Below, piece by piece: positions 18,656 to 62,690 of a DNA stretch of 64,000 bases (position 1 is the first letter of the stretch; each line of letters opens with the position of its first letter). The DNA lies in assembly GCA_004257845.1 (NCBI GenBank), contig GCA_004257845.1_4800.1, one strand, 5' to 3'. The translations under genes were made by a program, and so were the position numbers. Origin of the DNA: a phage. The notes below the pieces were generated by a model, which was not told the origin of the DNA, ran no database searches, and worked only from the letters and a program-made list of their open reading frames with translations.

Positions 18656-21394
18656 ATGCAAAAGTTTGACACAAACCTGTTGCAAAACCTTAAGTGGATG
18701 CAGAACAATGCACCAAACATTACATCTTTGGTGCAAAAGAAAAGTGACTGGTATGAAAGATACCAAGATCAGTTTTGGACTGACTGGTACAATAACATTT
18801 TTAACATTGACACTTGTGATGCAATGGGCATTTATATTTGGTGCGACATTCTTTGCATACCAAGAGACTTTGTGGACTTAAGCAATTATGAGCACAACTG
18901 GGCGTTTGGACCGACGCGCGACAACTTTGAAGGTGCGGACAACATCGGCGGCAACTTCTTTGGTGCTGGCGGGAAGGTTGTAAAGAATATCGAAGAAGCG
19001 CGCATACTTCTTAAGCTTCGTTATCTGACGCTTACAAGTGATGGCCGCATCGAAAGTATCAACCGCATGCTTAAGTGGATTTTTAACCGTGGAGAGGCTT
19101 GGGATTACTCTTCATCACGCTACGCATATGTGACCGACAATACTCAAGGTGCGGTGTCTTCATCTGAATCAACAAATGGCTCATTCCTTCTGTACGACTG
19201 GCAAGGGTCAACTGAGATTCAGCATGATTATAAGCAGATACTTTTAAGCCATGGCAACAATGCCGGGCTGACCATCAGCGGAGTGTCAGGCACCGTGTCA
19301 CGGATGGCGCACCCAGATTGGTACTCATGGGGAAATGGTTCCGGCACAGGGCTTGTCGGCGGCGACACCAGACAGTATGGTGGGCCTGATTACTATGGGC
19401 AGTTGTGTGGTGATTACCCAGGCGAGGCCATAGAGAATTTTGCCAACGCAGTAAGGGTCATCAAGACGGCTTCAAGCGGTGAGCCTGTGTATTCTTTGGC
19501 CAATAATCCAAGTGCCAAATCAATTTCGCTTCCTTCGCAGGCTGGCGTCAACGTTTGCTATAGCTTCTACATAAAGGTGCTTTCTGAAAATGTCGCTTCT
19601 GTTTCTGTTACAGAGAATAGTGATGCATCGAGTAATGGAAAGCTGTTTGACCCCGTCACTGGACAGTTCAACTTAGACTCGTCCTTGAGTTATTTCATCA
19701 CAGGCAAGTTTGATGGGGTGAGAAGGGAATCAAGCCGTGGTGGCATAAAAGCAATCGGCGGCGATTGGTATCGAATCTGGATTGTAGAGCAGACGGCAAC
19801 CGATGCTTCTGGAGTAAGTACCAGCTTTTCAATAGAGTTGAAGGCAACTGCCGCTGGATCAACTCAAACTCGTGAATTGCCTGAAGGGTCTGACGCTCTT
19901 TTGTTTGGATACTCGATTTGCGTCTGCGACCCTGTTCAGAATCCAAATGGACCTGAGCCTTATTTTTATGGAACGCAAAACCCTCCTTCTGACGGAACAG
20001 CAATCCTGTCTGTAACGGCGGGAACGCTCAATAACATCTCCTGTGCAAACGGACCGCTGACGACAAGAAACGGTGTAGTTGGCGAGTCATTCATGCAACC
20101 TGGCTCATCACTTGCATACTCTGGCTCAATCGGCGGCTACCCGTACCCAGGGAACGCCACGCTGATTGCAGAGACTGATGGAATCAGACGCTCATGGAAC
20201 GTTAGCAGGCTGGATGGAGCACCGCCGCCGCCGACCGCCGACTATTACATGGAATACGTCATCGGACCTTATTTCGCCAACAACCTGTCTGACAACTTTA
20301 AGACGCTAGTTGGCGACAGGAATGAAGGATTCTTGCCAGCAAATGCCGGAATACGCTGGCAGCTTTACCAAGAAGTCGCAGACTTATCTGATATTGATTT
20401 GACTGTCAGCGACATAACGGACACGCGAGTAGGATTTGAAACGGAAGGTGTTGCGTGGATTAACACTGATGGCATCATCAGAGTTGGCGGCATTAACGAG
20501 TGGCCACTGAACAACTTCAACGGTGTGATACGCCAACTTGAATCTTTGAAAGGTGTTAACCAAGTCGTCGATGGCGCTTTTGTCAACGACTATTCAATCT
20601 CCAAGGCTTCTCGCGATGACTTTGGCCGTGAAATACCGCGCGCAGCCATCACAAACTATTGGCGATATACTCAGCCTAATGATGGAACTTCATTTGGCAA
20701 TATCATTGAGGATGGCGCAAACACTGTCACAGCGACGCCAATCAGCGGTGTGCCCAACCAGTTCCCATCATTCAAGCTTTCCGCTACAATAGGGACTGTG
20801 CCAGCATCCGGTTATGCACGCGCTGTACTTGCTACTAAATACACTGGCACCCTGACTGGCCCTTTGTCATTTATCGCAATAGTCAAAAACAACACGGTTA
20901 ACGGTCAAAAACTTTTTGTAACTGTACCGGATGGGATGGGTGGCTATATCCCTAAATTCTACAACATAGGCGCAGGTGATTTGCAACGTATCGAAATTGA
21001 CCTTGCCGCTGAGATTGTTGAAGGCGCTACCTGGGATGGATCAACAGGCGGCATCAGCATCGGTTTGATATCAGGGAAAGACTTGCCGACCGAAGTTGGT
21101 ACGACTCTTGAACTTGATATTTTAAGCTTGATGCTTGTGTCTGGTAATACGATGAATGCGCTTGCAATTTCAACAAGCGAAGATTTCGCAAAGAAAACTG
21201 CGACTTCTATATACATCAAAAACCCAGGATCACTTGCCACTGGAGTTCAATTGATTGCTTCTAATGGTGATGTTGTAGCAACAGTAAACTTTCCGAGAAG
21301 TGCTGCTGGTGGTTATGTTTCAAGCATGAACATAACTGACTTAACTGGTGATTGGGCATCAACCCTTTTATCAAAAATTAAATACATCGTGTAG
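18656..21394 (+). CDS. large baseplate/tail fibre-associated structural protein
   Basis: 912-aa ORF after GAGGAA RBS; Gly/Ser/Thr-rich; upstream of tail fibre gene. Confidence 0.45.
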   Translation: MQKFDTNLLQNLKWMQNNAPNITSLVQKKSDWYERYQDQFWTDWYNNIFNIDTCDAMGIYIWCDILCIPRDFVDLSNYEHNWAFGPTRDNFEGADNIGGNFFGAGGKVVKNIEEARILLKLRYLTLTSDGRIESINRMLKWIFNRGEAWDYSSSRYAYVTDNTQGAVSSSESTNGSFLLYDWQGSTEIQHDYKQILLSHGNNAGLTISGVSGTVSRMAHPDWYSWGNGSGTGLVGGDTRQYGGPDYYGQLCGDYPGEAIENFANAVRVIKTASSGEPVYSLANNPSAKSISLPSQAGVNVCYSFYIKVLSENVASVSVTENSDASSNGKLFDPVTGQFNLDSSLSYFITGKFDGVRRESSRGGIKAIGGDWYRIWIVEQTATDASGVSTSFSIELKATAAGSTQTRELPEGSDALLFGYSICVCDPVQNPNGPEPYFYGTQNPPSDGTAILSVTAGTLNNISCANGPLTTRNGVVGESFMQPGSSLAYSGSIGGYPYPGNATLIAETDGIRRSWNVSRLDGAPPPPTADYYMEYVIGPYFANNLSDNFKTLVGDRNEGFLPANAGIRWQLYQEVADLSDIDLTVSDITDTRVGFETEGVAWINTDGIIRVGGINEWPLNNFNGVIRQLESLKGVNQVVDGAFVNDYSISKASRDDFGREIPRAAITNYWRYTQPNDGTSFGNIIEDGANTVTATPISGVPNQFPSFKLSATIGTVPASGYARAVLATKYTGTLTGPLSFIAIVKNNTVNGQKLFVTVPDGMGGYIPKFYNIGAGDLQRIEIDLAAEIVEGATWDGSTGGISIGLISGKDLPTEVGTTLELDILSLMLVSGNTMNALAISTSEDFAKKTATSIYIKNPGSLATGVQLIASNGDVVATVNFPRSAAGGYVSSMNITDLTGDWASTLLSKIKYIV

Positions 21395-21404
21395 AGGAAC
21401 GGCA

Positions 21405-23192
21405 ATGCCAACACTTATTAACAGACCTTTCGCGCAAAGCGGTGATGTATCCGTGGTGCCGGATGCAAGTCCAAGCGGTTATGTGAACTTCCAGCGCGGC
21501 TACACCCCTGACTATGCACTTGCCCTGGAAGCCGGAAACGTCGCCGCGAAAGCGGTTGAACGTGAGTCGATGAACTGGTTGCTGAATCTGATCACCGACA
21601 ACCTTATGTTCATCCAGGACCACGGCGCTCAACAGTATTTCTCGTCTGACTTGAAGCCAGACGGATACCCGAAAAATGCCATCGTTGTCAGCAACTCTGG
21701 CACCCCTTCAGCGCCTGAATGGCGCATTTTCCAGAGTGCGGTAGACGGCAACACCAGCGCAGTCCCAGCTAACGGCGAAACGGAATCTTGGCAGGAATTG
21801 ACGCTGCCTAGCGAAGCGAGAAAATATATTCCTATGCCTGCTGGCGGCGATGCGCAAAACCCGTATTTTGTTCGCGGACTGATTTCAAACTTTGTGGACT
21901 TTGATAATATCACGACTTCCACAACTATTGTCATTCAATCTGATGCCGTTGCCGCTCTCTGCTCTAACATCCCGAACGCGGTTGGTGCGACGAAGGTTGC
22001 AGGCCGTCTCCAGGTTTGCGCTTGGCAGGTTAATGCGCAGACTTTCGCCCTGCAACAATACACGTCAATGAACGGATATGTTTTCACCCGCTCTTATACT
22101 TCTGGTGCTTGGAGTGCCTGGATTCAAAATGCTACTGTTCAAGACGTGCAAATTGGAACGCCGAATCTTGCATCAGGTAAAGGCGCACAAGATATAATCC
22201 TTACCGTTCCAGCAGGTTATTCATGGCCTCCGTCAGCAGGTAGTCGCCTGACCATCGTTAATGATGTCACGACCACCGGACCTGTCACCGTGACCATTGG
22301 TGCAAACAAAGTTGCAGTCCTTGGATTCGACGGCGGCGAGCTGCCAGCAGGGTCCATCGTCGGTCTTCTTCCTTTTACTATTATTTATGACGGCACCGTT
22401 TGGCGTCTTCTTCAAGCGTTCGGCGCGGCGCAAATCGGTGTCGATGCTAGTGAGCCGCAACAGTTTGTTACAAAGCGCCAACTCGATGCTTTGGCCGCGA
22501 AGTTGATCACTATGGGTGATGTGTTCGAAGTCGGTGAGACTCGATTCTTGACTAATGGCACCAACCCAAATACTAAACTGGGCGCTTACGGTCAGGTATG
22601 GACCAGGTTGCCTGATAACATGGTCATCAGGACGTCTGGCACGGCAAGAAACGGTCTTGACACTGGAGGTGCAGACTCTGTTACTCTTACCGCCGCCATG
22701 CTTCCTCTGCACAATCACAGCGTGAACATAACTACGCGACAGAGTGGTCCATGGTCCAATACCACTGGAGACGCAGGCAACCATAACCACACAGGCGATA
22801 CCAGTCAAAACGGTGCTCACGTGCACGGAATGGATTCAGCAGGCAACCACCACCATGACAGTAGCTGGGGTGAATCAAATACGACTGATGCGCGGTATGG
22901 CGTGTATGATGGGACGCACAACAACTTCGGAAGTCGAAAGGGTGGCGACTGGGACAACTATAAATACAACACCTCAACTAACGGCAACCACGTTCACAAT
23001 ATTCAATCTTCTGGGTCACACACTCATGGGTTGAATATAAATTACGCTGGCAATCACAGCCATGGATATACCCTCCCAGCTCACACTCACGATGTGGTCG
23101 GTAACACTGGCGATGCAGGGCAGGCCGTCCCAACGGCTGTTTCAACTCTGCCGCGATATGTCGTCTTGAACGGCTGGTACAGAAGCGCATAA
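21405..23192 (+). CDS. tail fibre protein with histidine-rich HxH repeats
   Basis: ATG at 21405 after GAGGAACGG; C-terminal repeats NHNHTGD, AHVHG, NHHHD, HVHNIQSSGSHTHG, NHSHGYTLPAHTHD resembling metal-coordinating HxH motifs of tail fibre tips. Confidence 0.55.
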   Translation: MPTLINRPFAQSGDVSVVPDASPSGYVNFQRGYTPDYALALEAGNVAAKAVERESMNWLLNLITDNLMFIQDHGAQQYFSSDLKPDGYPKNAIVVSNSGTPSAPEWRIFQSAVDGNTSAVPANGETESWQELTLPSEARKYIPMPAGGDAQNPYFVRGLISNFVDFDNITTSTTIVIQSDAVAALCSNIPNAVGATKVAGRLQVCAWQVNAQTFALQQYTSMNGYVFTRSYTSGAWSAWIQNATVQDVQIGTPNLASGKGAQDIILTVPAGYSWPPSAGSRLTIVNDVTTTGPVTVTIGANKVAVLGFDGGELPAGSIVGLLPFTIIYDGTVWRLLQAFGAAQIGVDASEPQQFVTKRQLDALAAKLITMGDVFEVGETRFLTNGTNPNTKLGAYGQVWTRLPDNMVIRTSGTARNGLDTGGADSVTLTAAMLPLHNHSVNITTRQSGPWSNTTGDAGNHNHTGDTSQNGAHVHGMDSAGNHHHDSSWGESNTTDARYGVYDGTHNNFGSRKGGDWDNYKYNTSTNGNHVHNIQSSGSHTHGLNINYAGNHSHGYTLPAHTHDVVGNTGDAGQAVPTAVSTLPRYVVLNGWYRSA

Positions 23193-23200
23193 GGTGATTT

Positions 23201-23845
23201 ATGATTAATGCAAACGTAATATCTAAAGGGACCGGATGCAGCATGGATGTTGCTGAAAAATGGGTCGACCCCTTCAAGCAGGCTTGTGAGCACTACGGAA
23301 TCAAAAGCAAGAATGCCATCGCGGCGCTGCTTGCAAACGTAGGAGTGGAAACAGGCAGCCTGAAGACCTTTGTGGAAAACCTGAATTATTCCGCTCAAGG
23401 TCTTGCTAATACGTGGCCTAGCCGTTACAGCGCCAGCGGTCGTTTCGGTGGCGCACCAAACTCCTTGGCATTGTCGATTGCCCGTAAACCAATGGAAATC
23501 GCCAATAATACATATGCAAACCGAATGGGAAATGGTTCGGTAGCATCTGGCGACGGTTGGAAGTACCGTGGCCGTGGTGCCATTCAGCTGACTGGAAAGG
23601 CTAACTATGCAGAGTATTCAAAGCAATCAGGGTATGACGCATTGAATAACCCTGACATTTTGACTGAGCCGAAATACATCGCTGACAGCGCGGCGTGGTT
23701 CTTCAAGAACAGCGGTTGCATTCCACTTGCCGATGCGGGTGCATTTGATTCGACCGTGAAGCGGATTAACGGGGCCGCGCCGAATACGGCTAACCATGGG
23801 GATTTGCGACGGAAGCGTTACAAGGATGCACTAGCAGTTATGTAA
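23201..23845 (+). CDS. endolysin, glycoside hydrolase family 19-like
   Basis: Motif WKYRGRGAIQLTGKANY matches the GH19 chitinase/lysozyme signature; RBS AAGGTGA; located at end of late operon. Confidence 0.75.
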   Translation: MINANVISKGTGCSMDVAEKWVDPFKQACEHYGIKSKNAIAALLANVGVETGSLKTFVENLNYSAQGLANTWPSRYSASGRFGGAPNSLALSIARKPMEIANNTYANRMGNGSVASGDGWKYRGRGAIQLTGKANYAEYSKQSGYDALNNPDILTEPKYIADSAAWFFKNSGCIPLADAGAFDSTVKRINGAAPNTANHGDLRRKRYKDALAVM

Positions 23846-60341: not shown

Positions 60342-62690
60342 TTATTTCGCTGCTTTCAGCGCGGCTATCTCTGCCTTGAGTTCATCAATCTGATCCATCA
60401 ATGCGAGAATAGCCTCGTGGTGCAATGCCGCTGCAACACCTGGAGTGTTTACTGACTTTACGTCGTCCAGAATTGAACCATCGCGCAGGGTGACTGGTGA
60501 AGACTTCGTTTCTGATACTGCTTCAGGAAAATCTTTCTCTACGTCCTGCGCGATGAATCCGTATCCTATTGAGCCATTGGTTTCCAGAACCCATGTGACT
60601 CCTTTGATGTTTCTCATCTTGGATAGTGGATTACTGATACGCTCAATGTTGCTTTTAATTCTTTCGTCAGATGTGTTTCGCCATTCTTGGCATCTTGCTA
60701 TACCATCAGCACCAAATAAATAAGATGCGCTGCTTCCAGTGCCACTTAAAATGTTAAGTTGCGCGCGGTCCAATGCTGTCGTGCCACTTCTGACCCCTCC
60801 GAGCATCCAAGTTCCATCGTACCAGTCGCCGCCAACAGAGTTAATATAGCCTCCTTCTGGTACATTCGCGTAGTTGATCATCCTGATGGCATTTCTTTCT
60901 GAAGCCGCTACCCCAACTGAGTTTAACGGTTGTGCAACGACATCCTTGGGTCTGACGTATGCATCAATATGTAATGCGCCATCAGGTCTTAGTGTGCCAA
61001 TTTGAGTCTCTGCGCCTGGAAAGTACAAAGTCCCAGCTTGGTTGAATGACCATTCTTGCACCCCATTAGATATCACAGCACCTTGTTCAGACGTTAATCC
61101 ATCAATCTTACCGTATGCTTGCAAGAATGCTTGATACGCAATGTTGGTGCCAATTTTATATTCAGATTTTACACTGCCGCCTCTGACAAACGTTCCGGTT
61201 GCAGGTTTTACTGCGTCACCATTAATAACGCTCCAAGTCGTATTCGCAGCAACGAACCCACCAGATGCACGGATTACCCAGACGCCGACAAAACTTGCGG
61301 GAAGCACTTCGTTGTTGGCACCACCATAAATGTTGTTGTATTTGTTGGCGTCAAAAACAGCTTCGCCATAGGACGTTGCACCTGTGGAAATAGCCCTTGT
61401 CTGATACCTTGTTTGTGGGTTTGCAGGACTAAACACCCCAGATGCCCCAGACATTGCTGTCGCGCCCGATCCACCTGTATCAGTTCCGTGAAAGGTGACT
61501 GTACCTATAATGTTTGGCAATCCAGGCTTGGTGATTCTTCCGTCAGTATTACTAAGCCCTTTGTCTCCGCGCGCGAACAAGCCTGCAACAGAACCAGTCT
61601 GCACGCCATTTCTGTCAGGTACACGGAATGTGGTTGATCCATCACCAAGGGAGTATTTGCCTCGTTGAGAATAATCAGCAAGCCAGTCTGCATCGGCGAT
61701 AGGTGACAGCATTTGCGCATACGCCCAAAGCTCAGGCCAGTCAGCACGGTTGAGTAATTGACCATCAGCAACAACTTCATACGGCTGAATATAGGCGCGA
61801 CTATCTCGTAAGTGAAAGTCACCAACGCCATAGTTCATTACGCCGTTCATGCTTGGGCCAACGGTGCCAGTATTTACTAAGTTCTCAACCCAACACTTCG
61901 TCGCGGCATCATAATCATTAACAGGGTCGCCAGCCAGTGGTGTTGGGCCTTGTGGACGAATATTCAACCATGCTTGCGCATTGTCTGCTGATCCGGTGCC
62001 GCCCATGGAAGTTGGAACGATGCTTTGATCAGCAACAGGGCCAAATCCAAAGGCATCTTTCATTCCCTGAATAGTCGTTTGTCCTGTGCCGCCGTTGGAT
62101 ACTGGGATGACAGTTCCAGCATTATATAATTGCGCCCATGGGCTCCAAACTCCATCTACCGCGTTATAAGTCCTTTGGTGTGTAATGTTTTCGTAGTACG
62201 TTGAGTATCTTTGAACGCAACTTTCTATTGATGGTCCAGTTTTTAGGACTTCAAGGACTCCTGCTTGCGCCACTGGGTAATTAAGAGCAAGTTGAGCACT
62301 AGCATTAAAGTCTTGGAAATACTGCCCAAACCAAGAGCCTGTCAGCAAGTTCAGATTTATCCCAGAAGGAAGCACTCCGTAATTCCTTACAGTTCCTGTC
62401 AATGTTGCGGCAGTAGTTCGAATGGAAAGCATGTCACCAGCAGCCCATGCACGCGCTGCAGTCCCTTCCTGTGCACGCTGAACGGTCAGGACATCACCAA
62501 CGACGGCTGTTACTGTGATGATTTCGAATTGGAGGCCTGTTGCAGCGTCTACGATTGTCGCCACTACACGCTCGTTTGCAGCCAAGGTCGGAAAGCCCGA
62601 CCCTGAGCGGATTGTGATTGTGGTGTCTGAAGTCGTCGTTGGCTGAGCGAGCGCGACCTCAAAGTTGTTTTTGAATATTAGCCTTGGCAT
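60342..62690 (-). CDS. tail fibre/tailspike protein with C-terminal intramolecular chaperone (peptidase S74-like) domain
   Basis: C-terminal SDERIKSNIERISNPLSKMRNIKGVTWVLETNGSIGYGFIAQDVEKDFPEAV...coiled coil matches the auto-cleaving chaperone domain of phage fibres/endosialidases; Gly/Thr/Ser-rich body. Confidence 0.65.
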   Translation of the reverse strand: MPRLIFKNNFEVALAQPTTTSDTTITIRSGSGFPTLAANERVVATIVDAATGLQFEIITVTAVVGDVLTVQRAQEGTAARAWAAGDMLSIRTTAATLTGTVRNYGVLPSGINLNLLTGSWFGQYFQDFNASAQLALNYPVAQAGVLEVLKTGPSIESCVQRYSTYYENITHQRTYNAVDGVWSPWAQLYNAGTVIPVSNGGTGQTTIQGMKDAFGFGPVADQSIVPTSMGGTGSADNAQAWLNIRPQGPTPLAGDPVNDYDAATKCWVENLVNTGTVGPSMNGVMNYGVGDFHLRDSRAYIQPYEVVADGQLLNRADWPELWAYAQMLSPIADADWLADYSQRGKYSLGDGSTTFRVPDRNGVQTGSVAGLFARGDKGLSNTDGRITKPGLPNIIGTVTFHGTDTGGSGATAMSGASGVFSPANPQTRYQTRAISTGATSYGEAVFDANKYNNIYGGANNEVLPASFVGVWVIRASGGFVAANTTWSVINGDAVKPATGTFVRGGSVKSEYKIGTNIAYQAFLQAYGKIDGLTSEQGAVISNGVQEWSFNQAGTLYFPGAETQIGTLRPDGALHIDAYVRPKDVVAQPLNSVGVAASERNAIRMINYANVPEGGYINSVGGDWYDGTWMLGGVRSGTTALDRAQLNILSGTGSSASYLFGADGIARCQEWRNTSDERIKSNIERISNPLSKMRNIKGVTWVLETNGSIGYGFIAQDVEKDFPEAVSETKSSPVTLRDGSILDDVKSVNTPGVAAALHHEAILALMDQIDELKAEIAALKAAK

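Follow-up and report, generated by a model that had tools for sequence, protein, structure and literature searches.

A conserved Wifcevirus tail fibre with a Pbunavirus gp47-like baseplate anchor and a probable T4 gp37-type HxH needle tip

Our data suggest, with a probability of about 0.8, that the gene at positions 21405..23192 (+ strand) encodes a conserved lateral tail fibre composed of a gp47-type anchor and shaft (aa 1-372) and a T4 gp37-type tip made up of collar, needle and head (aa 373-595), the fibre being presumably trimeric with putative metal ions along its axis. The DNA analysed here, a stretch of 64,000 nucleotides referred to as the window, belongs to a myophage of Wifcevirus, a known group of E. 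coli phages. The original prediction of a tail fibre with a tip of the T4 long-fibre type is borne out by the match of the N-terminus to PDB 9b45, the match of a C-terminal profile to PDB 2XGF, the similarity to Felixounavirus fibres and the detection of an orthologue by mass spectrometry. The T4-like HxH tip of the Wifcevirus fibre is already known from Humolli et al. 2025, who described for Bas99 Gp32 an elongated tip resembling that of T4 gp37, in which the HxH motifs are conserved and which is also seen in an AlphaFold-Multimer model. They further noted that the fibre is conserved across the genus and suggested a "more mechanical role" for it.

Results

Gene, genomic setting and conservation

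The gene encodes 595 aa plus stop, without internal stops in the translated open reading frame. Translation is assigned to ATG 21405, the start also annotated in the orthologues, which is preceded at a distance of 5 nt by the Shine-Dalgarno sequence GAGGAA (21394..21399, + strand; read from the sequence) overlapping the last base of the upstream gene's stop codon. A start at GTG 21348 would run into the upstream gene. The fibre gene closes the baseplate gene block, with the orthologues at the same genomic position and the same order in Pantoea phage Kyle, and is followed on its 3' side by a gene for a GH19 endolysin. Assembly of T4 gp37 depends on the chaperones gp38 and gp57A; among the few neighbouring ORFs scanned, no gp38-like or gp57A-like gene adjoining the fibre gene was seen.

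The gene matches 29 deposited phage records with 87-99% nucleotide identity and 100% of the gene covered, and at the protein level the identity is at least 90% over the full length in all 29 Wifcevirus records. Orthologues include Bas99 Gp32 (ManiWeber/Bas99), vB_Eco4M-7_63, the locus tag of which was tied to the orthologue, and Bas100_0031, and are also present in FEC19, WFC and ECML-117; they represent the same gene as in the window with few substitutions only. The phage collection served as the source of the orthologues, the word-indexed homologue search having returned eight distant proteins and zero Wifcevirus orthologues. The protein matches PHROG 5717 "tail protein" (E=3e-175), and a Pfam scan with the window fibre and with its C-terminal 226 aa returned no family at E<=0.1.

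We obtained dN/dS values of ~0.03 (0.026-0.047, at dS 0.54-0.71), indicating purifying selection. By mass spectrometry of vB_Eco4M-7 phage preparations, the orthologue vB_Eco4M-7_63 was reported with 13 peptides and 34.6% sequence coverage. The same measurement also picked up proteins that are not structural, among them a helicase and the lytic enzyme; it demonstrates that the protein is expressed and co-purifies with the phage rather than that it is strictly located in the virion.

The N-terminal part resembles Pbunavirus gp47

The N-terminal part of the fibre (aa 1-372; 21405..22520, + strand) represents a Pbunavirus gp47-like baseplate-binding domain and proximal shaft. In a single-sequence PDB search, aa 2-372 align to residues 4-368 of Pa193 gp47 (PDB 9b45, E=1.2e-31); this search returned the N-terminal match only and did not find 2XGF. 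Matches to aa 2-376 were obtained in approximately 290 records of Pseudomonas phages. The Pa193 paper describes that gp47 loops 38-52 dock on gp46 and that loop 80-113 of gp46 holds the fibre. Leu39 and Leu41 of the window fibre align to the docking-loop hydrophobic residues Ile41 and Leu43 of gp47, and the gene directly upstream (18656..21394, + strand) encodes a baseplate wedge ("triplex") protein of 912 aa with a DUF2612 match, presumed to be the docking partner, in which aa 4-185 are similar to baseplate wedge 2 of Pa193, gp46 (E=4e-41), as well as to the E217 gp45 triplex protein. We infer from these alignments that a trimeric gp47-type anchor would dock on a loop of this wedge protein.

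The similarity to Pbunavirus gp47 (Pa193, 9b45; E217) thereby comprises the N-terminal ~370 aa, the docking-loop hydrophobic residues, the wedge partner and the gene order. The Pbunavirus fibre, however, is considerably longer (962 aa compared to 595 aa), and its distal part has no significant similarity to the C-terminus of the window fibre, the match stopping at aa 376.

Eight HxH motifs surround a His-poor insert

The HxH motif occurs eight times in the C-terminal region, with first residues at aa 436, 460, 472, 482, 529, 539, 551 and 560. Four motifs (H436/H438, H460/H462, H472/H474 and H482/H484) lie on the putative descending needle strand (aa 436-484; 22710..22856, + strand), followed by a His-poor insert of 44 aa (aa 485-528; 22857..22988, + strand), presumed to form the receptor-contacting head at the needle apex, and by four further motifs (H529/H531, H539/H541, H551/H553 and H560/H562) on the putative ascending strand (aa 529-562; 22989..23090, + strand). 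Almost all histidines of the fibre (18/19) fall within aa 436-562, 16 of these 18 being part of HxH motifs, and the last 33 residues after aa 562 are His-free. The original prediction had described a C-terminal region rich in HxH repeats, and every string it quoted is present; its extent of "~120 residues", while indeed His-rich, is corrected to aa 436-562 (127 aa) and is split by the 44-aa insert. The first HxH motif, LPLHNHS, had been overlooked.

The number of motifs is far above chance. When the complete protein is shuffled, 0.57 HxH motifs are obtained on average, with 0/100,000 shuffles reaching the eight observed, and shuffling of aa 426-575 alone gives a mean of 2.0 with 7/100,000 reaching eight. 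At the DNA level we found no tandem repeats under the motif array but only short GCAGGCAACCAnnnCCA matches, encoding AGNHxH. DNA-level repeats were therefore ruled out as the source of the array, and the repetition exists at the level of the protein motif only. None of the 16 motif histidines changes in the 12 orthologues, whereas the x positions 461, 473 and 483 vary, and the histidine columns remain invariant even in distant homologues with 30-47% identity.

Variation in the head and the second fibre of the window

Amino acid variation among the orthologues clusters in the head, with 15/37 variable columns in aa 485-521 versus 35/558 elsewhere (Fisher p=2e-8). Comparing the window with WFC, the nucleotide identity is 71% within a recombining cassette (gene nt 1441-1570, aa 481-523; 22845..22974, + strand) versus 98-100% across most of the gene, with 92.9% in the adjoining nt 1301-1440. 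The head exists in two alleles: in 28 records, 16 show 92-98.5% and 12 show 77-80% amino acid identity to the window head peptide. The "A" allele (SWGESNTTD...FGSRKGGDW) is present in the window, Eco4M-7 and Bas100, the "B" allele (GWGEAYADQ...GSAR-SDY) in Bas99, WFC, WFH and ECML-117. Outside of Wifcevirus the head was not found within the phage collection; the nearest outside relative is an uncharacterised Xenorhabdus tail fibre (P0001), sharing the motif WGE..ARYGVYD..NN.GS..D[WY]DNYKYNTST with the window head. Assigning a receptor via a head shared with a characterised phage was ruled out by this confinement to Wifcevirus.

Both alleles are carried by phages listed for O157:H7 (vB_Eco4M-7n and FEC19 versus ECML-117), by phages listed for Shigella flexneri (ECO71P1 versus CWP003) and by BASEL isolates (Bas100 versus Bas99), all of the latter needing the O16 O-antigen of K-12, so that the allele tracks no recorded host difference. 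It is conceivable, but rather doubtful, that the head of ~43 codons (aa 481-523) with its two alleles is a specificity cassette exchanged on its own, by which Wifcevirus phages would recognise their hosts at a second level independent of the O-antigen. If true, the head alleles might make different contacts to the LPS core or the outer membrane needed for irreversible binding, and this would contradict the published view of the fibre as functionally invariant.

The original prediction had further proposed that the region may be a host-range determinant. In T4 gp37 the head is the receptor-binding site, and the clustering of variation in the head of the window fibre as well as its exchange as a cassette agree with the view that the fibre, via its His-rich tip, is what chiefly determines the host range of the phage. 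We nevertheless regard this as unlikely: the protein is nearly identical throughout all 29 members of the genus and under strong constraint as judged by dN/dS, both head alleles occur on phages of O157:H7, Shigella flexneri and K-12 O16, and the window encodes another fibre which is far more variable. Within the fibre, only the ~43-residue head varies, and its alleles do not track the recorded host.

This second fibre (60342..62690, - strand; 782 aa), which carries a Peptidase_S74 intramolecular chaperone, served as a comparator within the window. Its identity among Wifcevirus falls to 55-82%, compared to at least 90% for the fibre at 21405-23192, and it shares receptor-binding domains with unrelated phages: aa 235-769 share ~70% identity with fibres from T5-like phages as well as from EP335, and aa 233-515 match a chain of 8hqz, deposited as "L-shaped tail fiber assembly" (E=5.5e-116). 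Humolli et al. 2025 treat its counterpart as the T-shaped fibre, and the EP335 fibre binds O157. Host-range specificity is most likely carried by this second fibre.

Relation of the C-terminal module to known fibre tips

The motif array of the conserved fibre is embedded in a putative collar-like domain, the first half of which (aa 373-435; 22521..22709, + strand) ends in GGADSVTLTAAMLP directly before the first HxH motif, while the second half (aa 563-595; 23091..23189, + strand) ends in ...LPRYVVLNGWYRSA. The first half contains a G/TGG.DS..L..P motif invariant among homologues; the homologues end in MGWYRSA and differ in the number of HxH motifs. A C-terminal profile of nine homologues matches the T4 gp37 tip 2XGF (2xgf_A) with E=9e-9 and six HxH motifs aligned, the match carrying a heavy compositional bias (41.9 on a domain of 35.8 bits). 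The same profile also matches the A-1(L) long tail fibre 8kec (E=0.005). The window fibre resembles the T4 gp37 tip in the proposed order of collar, needle and head and in that the descending as well as the ascending strand carries HxH motifs. It differs in the number of motifs, with eight (4+4) compared to seven in T4 gp37, in being much smaller, and in its anchoring, as its N-terminus would dock directly on the baseplate whereas T4 gp37 joins gp36. The HxH needle of T4 gp37 binds Fe2+.

The C-terminus aligns end to end, up to the last residues, with the long tail fibre of Felixounavirus DE7 (34% identity, E=4e-16), and the Felixounavirus C-terminal match was obtained by tblastn at 27-33% identity. 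In the Bas63 paper, Felixounavirus tips are described as being composed of a collar, a six-stranded HxH needle and a head. The end-to-end alignment with Felixounavirus fibres (Bas63 gp27/gp26 long/short; DE7 long) covers the C-terminal ~210-240 aa; their N-terminal anchors and shafts, however, are unrelated, their head sequence is a different one, and the Bas63 fibres have six or seven HxH motifs. We also considered a reading as a central spike with an iron-loaded apex, which is ruled out by the N-terminus being a lateral-fibre anchor and by the four/head/four array within a collar module.

The original prediction had named both the long and the short fibres of T4 as examples. The likeness to the long fibre gp37 holds, and the one to the short fibre gp12 turned out to be only loosely right, the window sequence matching the Pfam family of the gp12 receptor domain, S_tail_recep_bd, only faintly (E=0.49) and no other Pfam family. 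The homologues match Pfam Gp10_C (PF21939) above threshold and one of them matches Collar (PF07484) weakly, with no match for the window sequence itself; the flanks of the window module (YPVG...GGxDSVTLT..LPxH and ...Y..L..W.R.A) resemble the C-terminal domain of T4 gp10, the C-terminus of which reads YITVYRWIRIA. As gp12, gp10 and gp37 have a collar-type fold in common and as the fibre, with its 595 aa, is short and conserved like short tail fibres, the C-terminal domain could be imagined as a receptor domain of the T4 gp12 type with a single zinc site and no multi-ion needle. This is very improbable, since the arrangement of eight HxH motifs as 4+4 around a small insert corresponds to the layout of gp37 and not to a single site. 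Compared to the gp10/gp12 collar-type domains, a long HxH needle and a head would be inserted. Furthermore, the profile reaches the C-terminal domain of gp10 only weakly (E=0.75-2; 2fkk, 5hx2), a gp12 chain is absent from its PDB matches, and in Felixounavirus fibres that share this module the tip has been described as a needle.

That the His-rich stretch is merely a low-complexity, flexible segment lacking an ordered metal-binding structure, with HxH as a motif relic, is hardly credible: the richness in G, S, T, N and H, the missing Pfam match of the window sequence, the bias flagged for the 2XGF score and an uninformative, disordered monomer AlphaFold2 prediction of aa 373-595 (alignment of nine sequences, mean pLDDT 41.6) agree with it, but monomer predictions are expected to fail for intertwined trimers, the motif histidines stay unchanged next to changing x positions at a synonymous divergence of up to ~0.7 as well as in the distant homologues, and shuffling within the region yields on average 2.0 HxH motifs compared to the eight observed.

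Discussion

The similarity of the conserved fibre to gp47 in its N-terminal part and to the T4 gp37 tip in its C-terminal part supports a model according to which the polypeptide chain leaves the collar, descends a thin needle with four HxH motifs, folds at the apex into a small head comprising ~44 residues, and returns upward with four more HxH motifs to rejoin the collar. In the trimer, each HxH level would provide six inward-facing histidines coordinating one metal ion octahedrally, and up to eight ions, a number drawn from the motif count, would be stacked on the axis and rigidify the six-stranded β-needle. The trimer topology, the identity and number of the metal ions, the docking geometry, the receptor and the secondary step of the fibre are inferred.

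The head would touch the cell surface. Since the fibre is near-invariant across the genus, its most likely role is either binding to a component of the cell surface that is itself conserved or a later function in commitment or triggering. The O-antigen would be read by the other fibre, which is highly variable. The variation and recombination observed in the head would also fit some role in specificity.

Beyond annotation these findings are of little importance: the gene can be annotated as the tail fibre conserved in Wifcevirus, its tip being an HxH needle like that of T4 gp37. These phages replicate fast and infect O157 and Shigella; where their host range is to be engineered or predicted, the first target is the fibre at 60342-62690 and not the one at 21405-23192, in which the head cassette (aa 481-523) is the only part worth considering for secondary specificity. 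Judged from its sequence, the needle with eight motifs may serve as a compact model for metal-stabilised fibre tips.

An HxH array in a T4-type fibre tip

The tail fibre gene at 21405-23192 (+) is a 595-aa ORF whose ATG at 21405, with GAGGAA upstream at 21394-21399, is the annotated start in the orthologues. The protein carries eight HxH motifs, with first residues at aa 436, 460, 472, 482, 529, 539, 551 and 560; 18 of its 19 histidines lie within aa 436-562, 16 of these 18 in HxH motifs. Shuffling the whole fibre gave a mean of 0.57 motifs and never the observed eight (0 of 100,000), and shuffling aa 426-575 alone, which keeps the local His content, gave a mean of 2.0 and reached eight in 7 of 100,000 shuffles. 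The HxH-rich C-terminal region of the original prediction is thus real and far above shuffled expectation; all strings quoted there were found in the protein, and the first motif (LPLHNHS) can be added to them. A His-poor insert of 44 residues, which we call the head, divides the array into four plus four motifs, and 33 residues without His follow C-terminally. No tandem repeat was found at the DNA level in the fibre gene. An antisense ORF of 197 aa (22233-22826, -) lies entirely within the gene and is most likely a chance ORF.

Across 12 orthologues, whose synonymous divergence reaches about 0.7, none of the 16 motif histidines changes. The middle residues at 461, 473 and 483 do change, which fits His side chains that face the axis of the fibre and intervening residues that face outward. 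Whole-gene dN/dS is 0.026-0.047 for diverged orthologue pairs.

The window sequence of the C-terminal part (aa 373-595) alone had no match to a Pfam family. The homologues of this part are tail fibres from Xenorhabdus, Izhakiella and metagenomes with 28-38% identity; they share a collar-like start (YPVG..., TGGxDSVTLT..LPxHxH) and the C-terminal end MGWYRSA, differ in HxH motif number, and score above the cut-off of the Pfam family Gp10_C, which represents the C-terminus of the T4 baseplate protein gp10. The tip-module profile matches the T4 gp37 tip 2XGF at E=9e-9, and six HxH motifs line up between the two; this score has strong compositional bias and is hence supportive rather than conclusive. 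The profile also matches the cyanophage A-1(L) long tail fibre (8kec, E=0.005) and, weakly, T4 gp10. Independently of the 2XGF match, the C-terminal 210 residues of a Felixounavirus long tail fibre can be aligned with the module over its whole length (E=4e-16, 34% identity). Felixounavirus tips consist, according to the Bas63 paper, of a collar, a six-stranded HxH needle and a head. Homology and constraint together bear out the predicted tail fibre with a T4-type HxH tip, which is probably metal-binding; the tip would form a trimeric needle holding as many as eight metal ions. AlphaFold2 run on the monomer gave no useful model (pLDDT 41.6), which is what an intertwined trimer would lead one to expect; a published AlphaFold-Multimer model of the orthologue Bas99 Gp32 shows the elongated tip (Humolli et al. 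2025). Modules of this kind are very common: among 1.84 billion cluster representatives, the profile matched 23,305 (E<=1e-3), and 6,451 at the stricter E<=1e-10. Since the T4-type tip of a near-identical orthologue has already been published, this fibre is an ordinary, already described member.

Genomic setting and probable baseplate attachment

Full-length matches to the fibre gene (87-99% nucleotide identity) occur in 29 phage genomes, every one a Wifcevirus myophage from E. coli or Shigella; among them are vB_Eco4M-7, FEC19, WFC, ECML-117 and Bas98-101. The Bas100 orthologue, Bas100_0031 (annotated 'tail protein'), is the last gene of a baseplate block ordered hub, spike, wedge, 912-aa protein and fibre gene, followed by the endolysin. 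Pantoea phage Kyle has the same gene order and a full-length fibre homologue with 31.8% identity and nine HxH motifs. In the window, a GH19-type endolysin gene (23201-23845, +) starts 8 nt past the end of the fibre gene. Unlike T4 gene 37, which has gene 38 beside it, the fibre gene has no neighbour that encodes an assembly chaperone. By mass spectrometry, vB_Eco4M-7_63, whose locus tag we confirmed to be the fibre orthologue, was detected through 13 peptides, which cover 34.6% of the protein (PMC7048862); since some non-structural proteins were present in the same preparations (PMC7048862), the evidence for a virion location is good but not strict.

N-terminally, fibre aa 2-372 match residues 4-368 of the Pa193 tail fibre gp47 (PDB 9b45, E=1.2e-31), and about 290 Pseudomonas phage records match this part of the fibre only. 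In Pa193, according to its structure paper, the wedge protein gp46 receives the gp47 loops 38-52 (Ile41, Leu43) on its attachment loop (80-113). Fibre Leu39 and Leu41 align to these two residues, and the ORF upstream, a 912-aa baseplate wedge ('triplex') protein at 18656-21394 (+), matches Pa193 gp46 over aa 4-185 (E=4e-41), supporting as a well-founded inference that the fibre docks on this wedge protein, which should hold it. The matches to Pa193 gp46 (504 aa) and E217 gp45 are limited to aa 4-185. The remaining 727 aa (aa 186-912, 19211-21391) had no Pfam family match and, in the phage collection, were found only in Wifcevirus (96-99% identical) and in one weak Pantoea phage match. This part is a large extension, conserved and specific to the genus, and may be where the second fibre docks.

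Host range and the recombining head

The original prediction also saw in the HxH-rich region a possible host-range determinant, which is weakly supported at best: the HxH fibre keeps 90% identity or more across the 29 relatives, whereas the second fibre (782 aa, 60342-62690, -) is only 55-82% identical within Wifcevirus, its nearest relative in the phage collection being ECML-117 at only 82%, and represents a new allele. The second fibre ends in a Peptidase_S74 intramolecular chaperone domain, its aa 233-515 match a chain of 8hqz, which was deposited under the name 'L-shaped tail fiber assembly' (E=5.5e-116), and its aa 235-769 share ~70% identity with fibres from T5-like siphoviruses and from the podovirus EP335. 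The EP335 fibre is reported to bind the O157 O-antigen (Humolli et al. 2025). It is the likely host-range determinant. The conservation contrast agrees with Humolli et al. 2025, who found the HxH fibre highly conserved, suggested 'a more mechanical role' and saw the T-shaped fibre, i.e. the second fibre, as the one responsible for variable receptor recognition.

This published picture can be refined, since amino acid substitutions in the HxH fibre cluster in the head: 15 of the 37 columns in aa 485-521 vary, and only 35 of the other 558 do (Fisher p=2e-8). Between the window and WFC, nucleotide identity is 98-100% over the greater part of the gene but drops to 71% in gene nt 1441-1570 (aa 481-523), with 92.9% in the adjoining segment, a pattern indicating exchange of the head as a cassette. 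The 28 phage records with full head-peptide cover fall into two allele classes, 16 with 92-98.5% and 12 with 77-80% identity to the head peptide of the window. Both alleles occur among phages listed for O157:H7 (vB_Eco4M-7n and FEC19 versus ECML-117), for Shigella flexneri (ECO71P1 versus CWP003) and among O16-dependent BASEL isolates (Bas100 versus Bas99); the allele therefore tracks no recorded host difference. A secondary specificity role of the head is conceivable but drew no support from the analysis.

A Xenorhabdus bovienii tail fibre protein encoded in a bacterial genome (P0001, 310 aa) has the same collar, needle and head module, with fewer HxH motifs (about four) and a head motif in common with the fibre (WGEAY.D...ARYGVYD.T.NN.GS..DWDNYKYNTST) that is nearest to the 'B' allele, the one of Bas99 and WFC.

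Over gene nt 1-600 the Bas99 orthologue (L005) has 99-100% nucleotide identity to the window; over nt 901-1116 its identity is 100% to WFH (L011) but 82% to the window. This mosaic beyond the head points to frequent recombination in the fibre gene within the genus.
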